DNA from: Octopus vulgaris
Lineage: Eukaryota
Assembly (NCBI GenBank): GCA_951406725.2
Contig: OX597830.1
Location: 57,784,001-57,848,000, forward strand
DNA length: 64,000 bases
Direction: 5' to 3'
Shown here piece by piece: positions 4,535-33,432 of this stretch; position 1 is the stretch's first letter, and each line of letters begins with the position of its first letter. Both the position numbers and the translations under genes were made by a program. The notes beneath the pieces are model-generated. The model did no database searches. It was not told the origin of the DNA and worked only from the letters and a program-made list of their open reading frames with translations.

Positions 4535-4790
4535 GATCTTGTAAGGTACTTGGTGATCCTGTCAATGCTGGTGCCACGTGTAGAGCATTGCTGCTTGTAC
4601 CACGCACTGGTATTGATGTCATGTAAAAAGTACCCAGTTCATGCTGTAAAGTGGTTGGTGTTCAGAAAAGCATCCAATGATAGAAACCCAACCAAAACAG
4701 ATTGTGATGTGGCTCCTGCCCTTGCTGTCTCCTCTTGAACTGTTCAGTCCATGCCAGCATGGAAAACGGATGTTAAATGATGATGATGAT
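4535..4790 (+). mobile_element. RTE-tailed non-autonomous retroposon (family C)
   Basis: CCATGCCAGCATGGAAAACGGATGTTAAATGATGATGATG 3' end, shared with many copies. Confidence 0.75.
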
Positions 4791-5124
4791 TAAAGAATGA
4801 TTTTCAGTAATTTTAGAACACTGGAAATGTTTACTTGATGAAAGTTAAATAATTTTGATGAATATTCTCACAGTTGGAAAAAGGTTTTTTTGTGTTTTCA
4901 TGGTTTCCATGCCTACAGCTTATAAAAATAATTCGATTTTCTTCAAATATTAAAATCTCAGTAGAAAGATTTTTACAGTGTTCAGAATCTTTCCAGAGGA
5001 GACTTTACTTTCTTTTTTCCATTGTGTATGAAGTATATACCAGTAATATACTGGTAACCATTACTACAAAAAAATTATCAAATTTGAGTTGTTAAAAACT
5101 TAATTTCAAACATATTACTTTCAA

Positions 5125-19552: not shown

Positions 19553-19667
19553 GCCCCGCATCTAACCATTGTCTCTCTCTCTCTCTCTGCTTTGCTGCTG
19601 ATTCTCGGTTGGTGGCGCGGTTATGTCCCTTCGCTGCCAGCGTCTCTCTGCCAGACACGGTTCGGTC

Positions 19668-19998
19668 ATGGCAGCGAACTGCGCCGCGGACGACGGATCC
19701 GACGAAGAGTCGACCACGAAAAGCCACAACAACCAGAATCATATATCTTTGGCAAGAGTTTTAAAGATATTCACTAGCTCCATTAGCGAAGAACAGGCTT
19801 GGGCTATATGTAACCAGTGTAGTAAATATTTCTTAAATACAAATTCCAAGCACAATGGTTATCGGATTCTGACCAAGCATCGCCTCGACGGTCTCCACAT
19901 CCAAAAAGACGGCGAAGTCGTCATTAAAAGCCCCCAATTAAGCAGAAGGAAAGAGGATAATTATAGCCATACACCAGAGGAACATATCTCAGAAAGTG
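19668..19998 (+). CDS. spire: First coding exon of a KIND-domain protein, most likely the actin nucleator Spire
   Basis: MAANCAADDGSDEES..ISLARVLKIFTSSISEEQAWAICNQC..LHIQKDGEV matches the Spire KIND start (LSLxEIL..PINEEQAWAxCxQC); GTCATGG Kozak context; donor G|GTAATG at 19999, phase 1; upstream in-frame ATG at 19623. Confidence 0.85.
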
Positions 19999-22900
19999 GT
20001 AATGTTGTTTTTCTATTTTATTTCTCTCTCTTTGAATTCTTTTCAGTAATTATTAAATACAGGAGACTTGGTTATTAAAAACCAATTCTCTGTGTTTTTC
20101 CCGAACCTCACAAAACACAACACAAAACACCTCAGACACAACACAAAACACCTGCTGCATCTCTCCTCGCTTCCTTAAAAAACAAACAGCATCTCAACCA
20201 CACACACACACATGGTGCTACAAAGAATTACGGTGAAATAATTGAGGTTTTCTCTTTCGTCTCACTTATTTTTTAGGTTTCTAATTAATTAACTCCGCAT
20301 CCACTCCTTTCAACATTAACGAATGTTTTTCCTTCCTAATTACTTCTTTATCGTAGTTTAAGGTCACCGAATGCTTACATTACAACACTTAAATATCCAA
20401 TAAGTTGCTCCTCTTTTCATGTCTTCCTTAATTTTTCTTTTAATGTTGACGACGCAATTTAAATACAATTTAGAATTGCATTTAAAAAAAAAAAAAAATG
20501 ATTCGAAGAATTTACTTGTTTGGTTTGAATTTTTATTGCAGTCATCCTGTCTCCTTGTCTTTTGACTTGTTTTTCTCTTCTCTCCAATATTAAACCTTGC
20601 AAACAGTTCTTTGCTGACCGCTGCAGGTTGTTCACCTCATTTCACATTTGGCTTTGGTCCATTCATTAGGAGAGGAGGAAAAACTTGTTGCATTTTTTTT
20701 GGGGGGGGGGGGGAAAGAATCTCTCCGTTTTTTCCCTCTCAATTTATTTTAACAGAACTGAACATTTCTGTGTTTTCTTTAGGCAACTGCCTTTTTTTTT
20801 TGTTAACTCCCGAGAACTTGCAAATAGTTTTTTTTAGTTTATTTGTGAGGTTTGTTTTTTGTAGATTCATAACAATACTTATTTGGTATAAACCAAAGCA
20901 TTCTACTCGGACAAATTCTAAAACTATATTTAACAAATACAACAAAACAAAACTATTAAATCAGCAAAGTTAAATTTTTATATTTAATTGTTCATGTTCC
21001 TCACTGGAAACTAATTTAGAGCTTAACTTTAATTGGAAATGAAATTTTGAATGAATGAATCGGTTGTACTCTTCCGTTTCTATCCAATCTGTAATTTCCT
21101 ATAAAGCAATTAACGATACAATTGATGTCCTAGTCTGCCTCACCGAGTACAAACATCTATTTTCCTCTTGTCGCACCATCCTCTCCTATTAATTAATTAA
21201 TTCTATTTAACGTTGCTTTCTTTTATTACATTAATCCAACCGGCTTCTTGTTCAGTTGGTCCCAACAGTCTCCACTTGAATTTGTATTCGATAAAATAGA
21301 ATTATATTTGCTATTCGGTGGAAGCTGCGCTGATATTTTCAACCAAAGAAGCTATTTATAGATTTATTTTACTTGTAAATACACTTTCTAATGTAACCTA
21401 AGCTGAAATGCTTTAGTATCGACTACCAAAACATCAACGCAATAATTGTTTTAGTAAAACCTGTCATTCGCTTCTTCTTTCACTCTTTTTATTTTTTTCT
21501 CTCTCTCACCTTCGGCTATTTCTTGAATGGATTCAAATATGAGAAGCAGAACATTTAGGATTTCTGCATTTGATTATCTGAATGCACCTTCCCACTCGTT
21601 GTTTACGAAACAAGCCTTGTGTTTATCGTGACTGAAAAATCTGAAATAACTGCTAATTGCTTTGTCAGGTGCTTGGTTACCAGTTAATAAAACAACAAAC
21701 GATGGTGTTTGTTGTGGGAATTACTTCTATTTTTAGTAACCAGATAGTTTTGCTTTTGTAATTTAGTTTTTGCTTCGGTAAGCTTCACCTGTGAACATTT
21801 CATCCCATAAATTGATATAAAGCAGAAAATACGCTCGTCCTGTATTTTCATAAAGTTTATGTATTCAGTGGAGCTGTTAAATTACTTTCACTTTCAAAAA
21901 TAACTTTGTACAGTTGTGTCGGCTTTTATGAAATACATAGAATCTGAATTAAAACTATTTTCAGGAGACTTATAGAAAAATCGGTTAGTATGCTGCGACA
22001 AGTATTTACAATCGATTTGGATCGGCCTTCATTAAAGGACGAAGGCATCTCTGCACCAATATAACTTGATATATATTATTGAACTGGTTTCTTCGATGCA
22101 GATCACTAGTTCCCTTCTGTCCTGGTGCTTGTGTGTGTGTGTGTGTGTGTGTTGTTTCTGTGTAAATATATAAGAATTGCACTGTTCAGTGGGTATTTTC
22201 ATATTTTAAAACGCTAAGGTGTGATTTAAAAGGAATTTGACTGCTATTTCTAGCAAGTCGAGCAGGTGCAAGCTGTGTTTCGGTTATATTTACATATACT
22301 TTCATTAGCATCATTATATATATTATATAACCATGCGTGGGCCAGCGCCTTGGAAACGAACTTTCTAGGTGCTAATACTTGCTCATCCCTAATCTACGCT
22401 AACCCTTAGCTTTAGCTAAATCTTTGAAGATTACAGATGATTTAGCGAAATCAAAGGAGAACTTGAGTCGTGTTTTTGAAATGGTGAGGGTTCATCTCAC
22501 ATTTTTCGTTCAAATTTTACGATTTGTTGTCTATTTTTAATTATCTGTTTTAGAGAAATGGAATTTGCCGAGAATATGATGGTAGAATAGCAATATGACA
22601 TTCAGGACTATACAAACTTGTTTTGTATTGTCTATTCCTTTTCACCTGTTATTGAATTGCACTCTTTGTCTACTGGTGGTAGGAATTCATTTTCTACCTG
22701 TTGAAATTTAATGTATGTAATTATTTTGTATACAATCAGAGGAATTATTGAGTAAATTCAGTGATTTCATTAAAATATAGTCAAACCTGAAATCTTCGGA
22801 ACAATGGTTTTTGTGGATCGGCATTTGAAGTTTGTTTGAAAAATGATGAATGTAACAAATCATTGATTTCATTTGTTAATAAAGAATATTGTGATCATAA

Positions 22901-25900: not shown

Positions 25901-26070
25901 ACAACGGTTTCATTTAAACTTTGACTTTAGAAATATTTTTTCATACACGCATAACATTAATCCAAATTCCTTTAGATAAGCTTTCTTTTATAATACTTGA
26001 TAAATTTTGTTAGAACTTATATTACATTATTTACATTTGACTGATATTTGTCCTCATCTTGTTTGTTGTT

Positions 26071-26116
26071 AACACAACATTTCGGCTGATATACCCTCCA
26101 GCCTTCATCAGGTGTC
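26071..26116 (-). ncRNA. Minimal hammerhead motif, left arm of copy 1
   Basis: Minus strand GACAC-CUGAUGA-A-GGCUG..CAGCC-GAAA-UGUU-GUGUU; C>T change in the stem III palindrome. Confidence 0.6.
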
Positions 26117-26333
26117 TTGGGCAAATTTCGAACCTGGGTTCTCATTCCTAAGGTATTTTTCAATGTTGTTATTATCATTATTTAGGTCACTGCCTGGGCA
26201 TAGTGGTTAAGAGCGCGGGCTACTAACCCCAAGATTCTGAGCTCGATTCCAAGCAGTAAACTTAATAATAATATTAATATAACATTGAAAAATACCTTAC
26301 GAATGAGAACCCAGGTCTGAAATTTTCCCCCAA

Positions 26334-26379
26334 GACACCTGATGAAGGCTGGAGGGTATATCAGCCGAAACGTTGTGTT
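26334..26379 (+). ncRNA. Minimal type I hammerhead ribozyme motif, right arm of copy 1
   Basis: GACAC-CUGAUGA-A-GGCUG(GAGGGUAUAU)CAGCC-GAAA-CG-UU-GUGUU; stem I GACAC/GUGUU; palindromic AACGUU. Confidence 0.75.
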
Positions 26380-29300
26380 AACAGCAAACAAGATGAGGAC
26401 AAATATCAGTCAAATGTACATAATTCCTCATCTCAAACAGAACTGTAGAACTTATCTTGTTTGAAATTATATCTACAATGAATCTGTTTTTGAATTAGTT
26501 GCGGTTAAAAACTTCCATTTCTATTTGGCTTTGAGAGAACTATTCACTAGCGACTTGATGCGCAAAATCTCCATTTATTTTTCAGATTCAATTAAAACTT
26601 TTTCTTTTTTTTTCTTCTAACTTTATTCAATTTATTTTCACGCTAATGACTCAGCTCTAACGATAGATTAAATGTTTGAAAGCATGTTCATTCAATTTTA
26701 AATAGCGCCTCCATTATTTGGTTAGGATGGGAAGACAAGGATAGACAACATAACATACTAAAAGCTTTTAAATAAGTTCCTAGGCTGGGGCAGCAGTTTT
26801 TATTTTAAATTCTGTGTCATTTTAATTTCCTGTGCTGCGATCTTATTTTTTAACACACACGCGCGCTCGCGTGCACACAATTTTTCTGGCTTCTTTGTTT
26901 CACTATAGTTTTAATATTTTTGGAAAGTTATGCTAAACGAATTGATGTGGGTTTGGGAAATTTTAAAGCAAACGGATCCTTTGTCAGAGAAGTGATGCAG
27001 GAGTTTTTGTGATTTGTCATTAAAAAAAATGTTCAAAAATGTTAACCCTAAATTCAAAAGCAGCAGTTTTGATACAATTAAAAAAAATTTATATCTTGTC
27101 AATTTCATCATTATAATCCTTATTAAAGCTAATTTCCATATGAATTAGTCTCTGCTCCTTTTATACCTTGTTAATTTGTCGAGGGATAAAACTTACTGCC
27201 CCCCCCCCCCGCCTTTTTTTTTCATCTGAATTATTGTTGAGTCTGTTTTCACTTGCAATGGATTTCTTTCTGCTGCTTTTGTCACAATTTTCCTGCTTCG
27301 ATCTCGTTTAATATCACCAGTCTTGCATGACAACAATAACACTTGATGTTGTGTAATGATCTGATTCCAAATCTCTTCTGCATTCTCTTGCAAATTCCTT
27401 TATTATCTGGCTAATCTCATGGCCATTTGACATTCATTCATATTACATTCAAGTGCATTTGTGTATTATTTATCAGATAAACTTAGATGTATCACCACTC
27501 GGTAACCTTTCTTATTCTCACATGTCTTTCACATGGCACCTAATTTCCATTCTCATTTTCTTCTTCCACCTTTCCCCATCAGATATGGTATTATGCACAC
27601 ATTTTACCATTCATTCCTCTGCATTCTCTCAGCATCACTCATCATTTCCATCACGTTTCCCTTCCATTCGTAGTAATTATCAGCGCCTAGCCTATATTTA
27701 TTTACTCGCCGTTCATTCATTCATTCATTCGTACTTTTATTCTTCTCTGTTGTTTGCGTGTGTAAACAATAAATACTTTGCTTTCAGATTATCCTAACAA
27801 TTTCAATTTATTTTGTTATTTTGTTCTCCTTGTATTAACGCAACCAACGTTCGTTTTTTTCTTTCTTCTTTTTCATGTTTTATTGCAGACTCCTTCTGCC
27901 ATATTTACACTCGCATGAATAAATTTTACTTGAACATTTTCTAGTTATTCATATTGACATTTCATTACGGAAACAAGAAGAACAAACGACACAATCATTC
28001 GAGCATCGAGTAGAAATATTTTGAAGTATTTCTTCCAGCTCTTTATGTCTAAGTTCAAATTCCGCAGAAGTCAGCTTTGCCATTTTATCCTTCCGGGCCG
28101 ATAAAATGACGTATCGGTCAAGTACTTGGGTCAATCGTATTGCTGGACCTTTGGCCTCATTTACAAGTGATTGTTTTGAGAAGTAATCAACAATGTAATC
28201 GATGCTGAGTTCTTTTGAATCGTTTTTTCTTTCTTTATAAAGAAAACAGTTTAATTAAATTTAATAGGAATAATTATATAGGAAGTGACAATCTTGGTTT
28301 ATTACTGGTATTAATTAGTCAAGTTTATTTCAATGTTGAGAAACTATACTTTATAGACTTTGCAGATCTCAACTTTAGCAAAAGTGTTCTTAAACACCTG
28401 CTAACGTATTTTGTGCCCTCTTTTAGCTTCAGACTTTCGCTACAAACACTTTTACCTTGATTAATGTCGTTACATAGTTTTTTTTTTTGGTTTTTTGCCG
28501 GCATTAACATGTTCCAATTTGGTCAAACAAACAAACAAAGAAAACCTTCTGTCAAGTCACCTACTCAGGGCAGCAGTCGTATAACCCTAAACACTTCCTA
28601 CCATCTTTTAAAATGAAAATGACGTGTTGAAACTTGTAAAGTTTAGTCTTATTTGTCCAACGATAAATGCAAGAAGTCTCTGGTGAGAACACTGAAGGAA
28701 TCTTCATCATTTAACGTTCGTTTTCCATGCTGGTTTGACAGGAGCTGACAAGCTGGGGAGCCATACCAAACAACACTGTCTAGTTTGGCATGGTTTTTAT
28801 GACTGGATGCCCTTCCTAAACATCAACCACTTTACTGGGTGCTTTTTATGTGTCACCAGCACTGGTATGGTCTGATTTGGCATGGTTTTTCAGATTTATC
28901 TTGATACTATAGAATTATTCAACTGGTGCTGGCCAAACTGACATACTATAAACCACCACCTCTCACTGAATTTACATTTTCAAAAATTTAAAAGCAAATT
29001 TTATAACTTGAACTAAGCTCTACTGGCCAGTCCAACAGTTTGATGGCATTACGCAAATAAGGTTGCAGCCAACTGGCTGGGGACCAGTAAAAAACTATTC
29101 AGTTCACTTTTTGTATTCAAACAATGGAAGGGAATGGATTAGCAGTCCCAATAATGGGCTTTGGGGTATTTAGTTACATCTGGTTGTGTCCAATTCAATT
29201 TTACATCATCATCATCATCATATGTCCACGTTCTATGCTGGCATGGGTTGTATGGTTTGACAGGAACCAATGTGTCCAAGGACTGCATCAAACTCTGTCA

Positions 29301-32170: not shown

Positions 32171-32518
32171 TTAAAGGATTACAACAATGGCAACGAGGAT
32201 TATAACAAAGATAGTGACATTTGAATGCTTACACTATTACACTACATGAATTTGTATGCCAGAAAATGTGTTATAAACTTCATCTGTCATCCATCTGCTG
32301 CATTGGGGCTCTCTTCAGCCCCAAATCTATCGTAATAATTGTGTCTTGGAAGGCTTATTACACCAATAATGCGAAACACAAGCACTGTGTGTTTGTATGC
32401 ATGCATGATGACCCTTCCAAGACACCAGAAAATTCAATACAGTTCCATATTTAAGAGATGAGGAATTATGTACATTATTTACATTTGATGGATATTTGTC
32501 CTCATCTTGTTTGCTGTT

Positions 32519-32564
32519 AACACAACATTTCGGCTGATATATCCTCCAGCCTTCATCAGGTGTC
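32519..32564 (-). ncRNA. Minimal hammerhead motif, left arm of copy 2
   Basis: Minus strand GACAC-CUGAUGA-AGGCUGG..UCAGCC-GAAA-UGUU-GUGUU. Confidence 0.6.
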
Positions 32565-32834
32565 TTGGGGAAATTTCAAACCTGGGTTCTGATTCTTAAG
32601 GTATTTTTCGATGTTGTTGTTATTATTCAGGTCACTGCCAAGAATTGAACTCAGAATTTTGGGGTTAGTAGCCTGCGCCATTAACCACTATGCCCGTGGA
32701 CATATGGCACAGTGGTTACGAGCGCGGGCTACTAACCCCAAGATTCTGAGTTCAATTTCAGGAAGTGAACTGAATAATAATAATAATATCAAAAAATACC
32801 TTAGGAATCTGAACCAGGTTCAAAATTTCTCCAA

Positions 32835-32880
32835 GACACCTGATGAAGGCTGGAGAGTATATCAGCTGAAACGTTGTGTT
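32835..32880 (+). ncRNA. Minimal hammerhead motif, right arm of copy 2
   Basis: GACAC-CUGAUGA-AGGCUGG(AGAGUAUA)UCAGCU-GAAA-CGUU-GUGUU. Confidence 0.7.
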
Positions 32881-33432
32881 AACAGCAAACAAGATGAGGA
32901 CAAATATCCGTCAAATTTCAATAATGTACCAGAAAATTTGTTTCATCACACAAATTCACAAGTATCTTGCAAATCAAATAGAAAACTGAATTATCATAAT
33001 TTTGTTGTTTATACTATTTGATGTCAGACATGCTGTTCCCTCAAGAAATGCTCCCTCTTATGCTGATGGCATTCCTCTCATCATTCCTCCTTCGCTTCTC
33101 TACAGAAACAATCGCCCACATACAAAATCTCTTCCATTGGGATTATGGTGACCGAGAATCTTTCAATAGCAGCAGATACAATCTCTGCTTCTAGCAAGGA
33201 AACCATCCAGTGTCTTACCTTCCTTTATCTTGAACAATATACAATTAAAAACTGCTAATTATTACAAATGTTTGGTCTGAGAATCTCTGATAACTAATCC
33301 TCATTACTCTTCATATGATGACTAAAGCTACATTCCAAACATAAGTTTTACCCTCTACAAAGTTTCGGATCCACAATGGAATGTGGAACCAGCATCTGGG
33401 ACAGTGCCACTCTTTTTATCTGTGTGTGTGTG

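Follow-up and report, generated by a model that had tools for sequence, protein, structure and literature searches.

Penelope-like elements (PLEs) such as PAc of Anolis (PMC11167929) and Penelope of Drosophila virilis (PMC2377424) are the closest described systems to the locus reported here, a palindrome at positions 32,424 to 32,938 of a 64,000-nucleotide stretch of the Octopus vulgaris genome (GCA_951406725.2, contig OX597830.1, positions 57,784,001 to 57,848,000; the whole stretch is called the window). The PAc protein cuts and extends both target strands and is a predicted dimer. Its template is uncut RNA, and two internal start sites of reverse transcription in the first codons set the tail, with the open reading frame (ORF) sequence behind them being needed (PMC11167929). 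PLE insertions show a pattern of an inverted, 5'-truncated copy and a 30- to 40-bp tail at one end (PMC8557442, PMC8969392). For Penelope, the available text describes an internal promoter like that of long interspersed elements (LINEs) and no RNA polymerase III (Pol III) promoter (PMC2377424).

We found that each arm of the octopus palindrome is the ~270-nt pseudo-long terminal repeat (pLTR) of an abundant 2.65-kb Penelope/Poseidon element. This element is like PAc and Penelope in having a reverse transcriptase (RT) followed at the C terminus by a GIY-YIG-type domain without a zinc finger linker, a pLTR that overlaps the ORF start with a minimal hammerhead ribozyme in the first codons, and two 3' end points 30 to 40 nt apart, together with an inverted 5'-truncated copy and a tail at one end. 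It differs from them in that its pLTR includes an (AAT)n linker as well as a tRNA-like head containing A and B boxes, that its 5' ends pile up strongly at this head, and that most of its copies are solo pLTR pairs.

Inverted truncated PLE geometry, minimal hammerheads, promoter-plus-hammerhead repeats, and tRNA-derived terminal repeats are already known. In Schistosoma, minimal hammerheads on opposite strands 100 to 700 bp apart have the same head-to-head layout and were ascribed to truncated PLEs, with no tRNA head, duplication, or long/short asymmetry described in the available text (PMC4209133). The schistosome Sm-alpha and Sj-alpha repeats, which resemble short interspersed elements (SINEs), have a Pol III-type promoter beside a hammerhead, as here (PMC6765202), but they are noncoding tandem repeats freed by cleavage, whereas here the pLTR of a coding element is inserted uncut and inverted. 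The TRIMs (miniature retrotransposons with terminal repeats) Helenus, Ajax, and Cassandra carry a tRNA- or 5S-derived promoter in the terminal repeat, possibly through SINE capture; they are nonautonomous long terminal repeat (LTR) elements whose autonomous partners are expected to use Pol II and to lack the repeat, whereas in octopus the head belongs to the coding element itself (PMC10886601). Non-LTR retrozymes have a type I hammerhead and a link to PLE pLTRs, as here (bioRxiv 10.64898/2026.07.22.740005). They form head-to-tail tandem arrays, whereas the octopus copies are dispersed inverted pairs starting at the tRNA-like head, and we rejected a retrozyme assignment on this ground.

RESULTS

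The palindrome arms are terminal repeats of a Penelope/Poseidon element

The window palindrome is an inverted repeat (32470-32694 versus 32706-32929; 461 nt aligned, 85.9% identity). An original prediction, made from the letters alone, had assigned to each arm a tRNA-like head with an A box, a GGG-CTACTAA-CCC anticodon-like stem-loop and a B box, an (AAT)n linker, and a minimal hammerhead; all of these are present, the hammerhead being of type I. Its inverted repeat of ~490 bp is real in its arms but is ~460 bp long and asymmetric, with a 34-nt tail on the left only. The left arm begins at element position 15, and the right arm, which has the short end, begins at 0-1. They join at a 4-nt overlap, TGCC, and the 11-bp direct repeat ACCAGAAAATT flanks the whole palindrome. 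The proposed insertion as one event holds. The B boxes of both arms have decayed at CpG. Stem II, given as GGCUG-CAGCC for each arm, ends in CAGCT in the right arm; in the left arm, a mutation has altered stem III (GAAATGTT). The start codon is gone from both arms through an identical change (ATC at element position 118), and with its arms 14% apart the window copy is dead. Rfam and default ARAGORN runs on the window palindrome returned no tRNA and no hammerhead match.

A distant PLE fragment in one locus (L090) led us to the parent family. The whole arm, head included, lies on the same strand directly after the ORF, 23 nt past the stop codon, in 17 of 20 longer loci, and at the opposite end of the element the tail continues as ORF sequence. 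Taking the column majority of 19 segments yields a 2648-nt unit that has an ATG at 118 and 835 open codons and is ordered as head, AAT linker, ATG, RT plus GIY-YIG-type frame, 23-nt spacer, and next head; copies have a mean identity of 92.4% to it. The arm stands at both ends of four loci (L281, L282, L285, and L288), and the near-full-length copies L281 and L280 begin at head positions 5 and 10. At the protein level, 6 of the 20 loci have an alignment to a full-length relative of 847 aa (P0003) that starts inside the arm, at residue 18 of the relative; the hammerhead core is translated as TPDEG...PKR in both the family frame and this relative, and the arm frame of the window matches it as well (E 3e-4). 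The closest protein relatives (P0001 to P0022) are 53 to 68% identical.

The RT domain matches RVT_1 in Pfam, and the endonuclease aligns to Pfam-positive PLE GIY-YIG domains of the same genome (profile comparison, 92.5%, E 5e-7). A CX2-5CxxC zinc finger linker is absent between the two and present in the Neptune-like ORF of this genome. Because absence of this linker separates Penelope/Poseidon from Neptune/Nematis (PMC8557442), we placed the element in Penelope/Poseidon. A quick tree, which held no named Penelope/Poseidon reference, set it apart from two Neptune-like ORFs. The autonomous Penelope element with a shared tail that the original prediction had proposed to look for is present, and it shares the whole arm, not the tail alone. 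Mobilization by Penelope machinery was borne out; a separate SINE was not, as the whole arm is the pLTR of the coding element. We likewise rejected a tRNA-derived SINE lineage sharing the tail only, given the whole arm in the coding element and the lack of diagnostic variants.

Most paired insertions combine one long end with one short end

We searched the 2.8-Gb genome (G000) for further copies. A similarity search with one arm gave 2868 candidates, of which 40 were scored. The 38-nt hammerhead core had 1620 exact matches (reversed control, 0), and 5 insertions in forty 10-kb stretches at round coordinates correspond to ~35,000 genome-wide (95% range, 11,000 to 82,000). Across 360 tails, the mean divergence from the column majority is 4.7%, with the commonest variants at CpG, and the family looks old.

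For a census of pairs, we used 90 stretches around 100 listed core matches, all on one contig (C1), a sampling mildly biased toward insertions that carry two hammerheads. An inverted partner lay within 2.6 kb in 61 of the 90 insertions. These comprised 51 pairs of a long and a short end, 3 of two short ends, and 7 unclassifiable pairs, so that 51 of 54 classifiable pairs were long plus short; an earlier overlapping set of 58 pairs had 51 long-plus-short and 2 long-plus-long pairs. The 3' ends are bimodal at positions 238 to 247 and 269 to 275 (155 ends), and long ends halt sharply at 269 to 276; no flanking sequence in common accompanies them among the 67 ends listed. Flanking duplications scored at least 8 in 42 of the 61 pairs (8 to 20 bp, mode 12 to 13), and in 48 of the 58 earlier pairs versus 10 of 300 mismatched flank pairs; other pairs, like that of the window, have the duplication around the whole unit. 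These asymmetric ends and duplications of 8 to 20 bp led us to reject a miniature inverted-repeat or other terminal inverted repeat transposon. The palindrome itself is ordinary PLE insertion geometry, which, like the two start sites, agrees with PMC8557442 and PMC11167929.

Of the 42 pairs with a tight junction, only 7, the window copy among them, have two arms that both start in the head. It is the short-ended arm that extends further 5' in 18 pairs and the long-ended one in 9, with equal reach in 11. Because either arm can be the longer one, simple fold-back is ruled out. Non-CpG variants common to both arms numbered 14 versus 4.1 +/- 1.9 expected (49 pairs; maximum of 1000 shuffles, 11.2), with 29 loci picked by similarity left out of this test, and this sharing fits one source RNA. 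Core pairs on the same strand 3 to 5 kb apart on C1 were considered as one element and rejected, being separate insertions. Arm sequences occur occasionally in partial tandems and are otherwise dispersed inverted pairs.

Ribozyme processing lacks support from the inserted copies

The minimal type I hammerhead in the pLTR was recognized by its motif and stems, its cleavage being a prediction, and it would be an ordinary pLTR ribozyme of the PLE type. Compared with shuffles, hammerhead folds showed no gain in stability (z, -1.05 to -2.0). In inserted copies, the sequence continues uncut through the predicted cleavage site. RNA read through the whole palindrome would fold as one long hairpin (-336 kcal/mol) with one sense hammerhead, and because the two hammerheads lie on opposite strands, one transcript cannot give both halves of a dimer. 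We also inspected RNA reads from a related organism (two runs, ~6% of each; 8108 and 5643 reads; library strandedness not known). There was no joint across the cut site among the RNA rows shown, which is a weak test.

These results bear on the original prediction of a ribozyme-processed SINE whose propagated form is a fixed head-to-head dimer. The inverted partners in the census agree with such a unit, as do the head-to-head junctions common in the RNA reads (380 and 281 loose ends). However, arm lengths and junctions vary, few pairs have two whole arms, the ends differ as long and short, 29 of 90 insertions have no detected partner, and the arms belong to a coding element. Neither the opposite-strand hammerheads and their single hairpin nor the uncut copies fit ribozyme processing. 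We regard this explanation as very improbable.

The 5' ends pile up at the tRNA-like head

ARAGORN calls the head tRNA-like at an 85% threshold, which 5 of 300 shuffles pass. With a model built from 22 host tRNAs, ten heads score 12 to 20 bits; the left and right heads of the window score 17.3 bits (E 0.003) and 13.2 bits (E 0.07). The closest of 27 host tRNA sequences, an incomplete set of isotypes, is tRNA-Arg. The A and B boxes are consensus-like at tRNA spacing.

We examined where 94 head-containing arms end. Sixty-eight end at -3 to 25, 13 end at 26 to 60, and 13 continue into the body, so that 68 of the 81 arms at risk end at -3 to 25. The end rate per nucleotide is 0.061 in that interval versus 0.004 just downstream and 0.0004 to 0.003 upstream, a jump of ~15-fold. 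The inferred start precedes the A box by 13 nt and follows TATAAG by 28 nt, and a TATAAG-like word occurs at -28 in 65 of 77 copies covering the site. We infer from this pile-up that it marks the 5' end of the RNA. It could instead be a hot spot of stalling or template switching at a GC palindrome, with the head a passenger in the 3' untranslated region: positions 1 to 10 are self-complementary, many full dimers are joined there, and 24 of the 94 ends fall at -3 to 5. That explanation is improbable given the 44 further ends at 6 to 25, the near-full-length copies that begin in the same interval, and the arms ending there whose joined partner has its cut at a different place (L002, L003, L006, and L021).

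The same pile-up would be expected if solo arms were a true SINE, transcribed by Pol III from inserted solo arms and retrotransposed in trans by the element protein with no need of full-length RNA. The head with A and B boxes is a feature of tRNA-derived SINEs, the arm as a whole has SINE anatomy, and arms far outnumber bodies, as the 13 of 94 entering the body illustrate. Yet there is no solo-specific subfamily: 79 solo arms could not be told apart from 49 body-linked ones by any variant (in 42 tests, the best p was 0.019). C142T was considered as a solo-specific variant and rejected as a selection effect of the first query; without the 29 similarity-picked loci and the window, it stood at 8/79 versus 1/47 (p 0.15). 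The sharp stop of long ends without a shared flank also speaks against a separate SINE, as does the PAc template, which needs ORF sequence beyond the start sites that solo copies lack (PMC11167929). We therefore consider a SINE unlikely and, because no variant is diagnostic between solo and body-linked arms, read solo arms as probable copies of the 5' end of the element RNA.

The head may be a Pol III promoter

The tRNA-like head is probably the element's own promoter. We marginally favor transcription from TATAAG, A box, and B box, i.e., a tRNA-type Pol III promoter, over Pol II from the TATA alone. The element and its insertion would be the same if Pol II started from TATAAG at -28 and the head were a captured SINE head in the 5' untranslated region, and we hold this to be a real though minority possibility. 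The frequent TATAAG-like word points that way, as do the LINE-like internal promoter of Penelope (PMC2377424) and the argument of Kojima that autonomous elements must use Pol II (PMC10886601), and the start-site pile-up is compatible with either polymerase. Against it stand the consensus A and B boxes at tRNA spacing with the inferred start just ahead of the A box. A run of four T residues (T4) is also absent from the sense strand of the 2648-nt column-majority unit; natural copies have ~1 T4 run per unit, never at a shared place. In 13 of 14 other PLE frames, T4 counts are near or above expectation, and the exception, locus L203 (2 versus 4.4), also has boxes.

A survey of relatives found 18 hammerhead-bearing repeats within 80 related loci. 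Four of these pLTRs have a TATA 40 to 42 nt before the hammerhead and no boxes, which again agrees with Pol II. Of the 18, L203 (38% protein identity) alone has A/B-like boxes; they occur in each of its two pLTRs (1951-2200 and 4742-5022), where they lie 38 nt behind TATAAG and are followed by an AAT-rich linker, the hammerhead, and the ORF start. Its head was missed by the host-tRNA model and found by ARAGORN only at 70%, and 42 of 300 shuffles pass already at 75%; taken by itself, the box pattern turned up in 16 of 20,000 shuffles. In the quick tree, L203 is not sister to the family (long branch, open fork), and L202, without boxes, is nearer. As its head is weak and its place in the tree open, L203 is a lead only, although its layout suggests a recurring or old design.

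Coordinates and further observations

The features of the palindrome and of a second insertion in the window are collected in Table 1.

Table 1. Positions of the pLTR insertions and their parts within the window
Feature	Position	Strand	Remark
Target-site duplication, left (11 bp)	32424..32434	.	Sequence
34-nt tail of left arm only (long 3' end)	32436..32469	-	Continues into ORF in full-length elements
Left arm, pLTR copy with long end	32436..32694	-	Element positions 15 to ~275
Left minimal type I hammerhead	32519..32564	-	Stem III palindrome lost via CpG change; sequence and fold
Left hammerhead, predicted cut	between 32524 and 32523	-	
Left tRNA-like head	32628..32694	-	A box clipped at junction; B box 32641-32652
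Arm junction, 4-nt microhomology	32691..32694	.	Sequence
Right arm, pLTR copy with short end	32691..32929	+	Element positions 0 to 241
Right tRNA-like head	32692..32772	+	Inferred start 32692
Parts of right head	A box 32705-32715; anticodon-like stem-loop 32726-32738; B box 32748-32759	+	
(AAT)n linker	32773..32790	+	In other copies expanded and invaded by other elements
ORF start-codon site (element position 118)	32807..32809	+	ATC in window
Right minimal type I hammerhead	32835..32880	+	Predicted cut after 32875; overlaps first PLE ORF codons
Target-site duplication, right	32928..32938	.	First 2 nt common to element end
Second family insertion	26011..26454	.	9-bp duplication
Arms of second insertion	26023-26197 (-) joined to 26197-26447 (+)		First arm 5' truncated and short ended, second long ended

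Positions 19602 to 20078 (+) hold a KIND-domain exon (PF16474, E 1.6e-13), which we take to be Spire-like. Both insertions may lie inside an intron of this KIND-domain gene.

Elsewhere in the family, repeats of at least three other families, one of them LINE-like, have repeatedly inserted into the (AAT)n linker (L088, L106, L120, L334, L335, and L358), which suggests AAT-targeting elements. At hammerhead variable position 7 (element 156), a T-to-A change is linked to a change at 225 (8 versus 1.0 expected); this minor subfamily keeps the core intact and is somewhat commoner in body-linked arms.

Other hammerhead repeats were seen alongside. A young Neptune-like PLE (L051 to L056, e.g., L053:581-4281), which came from a Pfam GIY-YIG search of the genome, has many intact 781-aa RT plus GIY-YIG frames, an upstream 479-codon frame without a Pfam match, and, close to the 3' end and adjoining (TA)n, a hammerhead-like core of variant sequence. 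We considered this family as the partner of the arms and rejected it, as its ends lack the arm. A short, retrozyme-like tandem repeat within (TA)n at L068:3655 (+) contains another hammerhead, distinct from that of the arm, whose stem III is palindromic, and a third minimal-hammerhead repeat family in the octopus genome (L397 [-] and L295 [+, 3508]) is unrelated to the arm. A search of viral contigs found no relative. In prokaryote genomes, one contig in a bacterial genome bin (L410) held a PLE with a TATA and a hammerhead and is probably host contamination.

DISCUSSION

We interpret the locus as a heavily 5'-truncated Penelope/Poseidon insertion with two inverted pLTR copies that arose by the following route, and we give this reading a probability of about 0.7. 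Transcription would start at the head, most likely from a promoter made of TATAAG, the A box, and the B box, and the protein would bind the RNA within the first ORF codons. Both target strands would be nicked, ~12 nt apart, and one cDNA would be primed per nick, with the short site used for one and the long site for the other, like PAc in vitro. With priming near the 5' end of the RNA, only ~240 to 275 nt would be copied before run-off at the start site, leaving SINE-like solo arms, and the two cDNAs would be joined via microhomology into a head-to-head palindrome. The template would be uncut RNA. The insertion likely arose through priming by the enzyme at each of the two nicks in a single target cut. 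A long and a short end in each pair, and variants shared by the arms, are as predicted by double priming by a dimeric enzyme.

Several results weigh against this account. None of the copies seen was intact, the frame of 835 codons being that of the column majority, and the endonuclease has no Pfam GIY-YIG match, its assignment coming from the profile comparison. A partner was not detected in 29 of 90 insertions, some of them owing to foreign elements in the (AAT)n linker, and a few pairs had two short ends (3, census) or two long ends (2, earlier set). The shared variants of paired arms could alternatively stem from later gene conversion. The active hammerhead dimer (-22.1 kcal/mol) is not favored over two monomer folds (-26.6 kcal/mol). 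With regard to the promoter, T4 depletion is weak (ORF expectation, 2.8; P 0.04 by synonymous shuffle; P 0.055 and 0.19 with Markov nulls), and TATAAG at -28 allows a Pol II start at the same place. The RNA reads are equal on both strands and track the DNA copy gradient, with no pile-up at the head or cut site; for an old family, they neither support nor exclude a head promoter. No RNA record was found among the listed holders of the arm sequence.

The tRNA-derived SINEs OK, OR1, and OR2 of octopus, reportedly described by Ohshima and Okada in 1994, were compared by name only, and OR1 and OR2 are said to be derived from tRNA-Arg. They and the family are alike in having a tRNA-derived head, the family head being nearest to tRNA-Arg of the 27 host sequences. 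Identity with one of them is possible. OR2 is listed as a CORE SINE (PMC4758252). The family is not described in the available text of three octopus repeat papers (PMC13282606, PMC8967140, and PMC4758252) and of the retrozyme preprint. The literature searched contained no coding PLE with a tRNA-type head or promoter; Repbase, Dfam, SINEBase, and preprint supplements were outside this scope and could hold the family. What appears to be new here, judged from sequence, is a coding PLE with a tRNA-like head at its likely transcript start.

Small-RNA promoters have been thought to be confined to short noncoding elements, and this family offers a test of Pol III driving an autonomous element. Tentatively, a coding Penelope/Poseidon element may have come to be transcribed by Pol III, with a tRNA-type, TATA-assisted promoter swapped in, T4 runs purged over 2.6 kb, and promoter copies shed by the tens of thousands; in the same tentative picture, this shedding would be due to RT priming near the 5' end of its own RNA. 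The split between a SINE and its partner is blurred here, and part of the counted SINEs in such genomes may be PLE terminal repeats. With ~35,000 insertions and readable duplications, double priming by a dimeric enzyme can be tested genome-wide.
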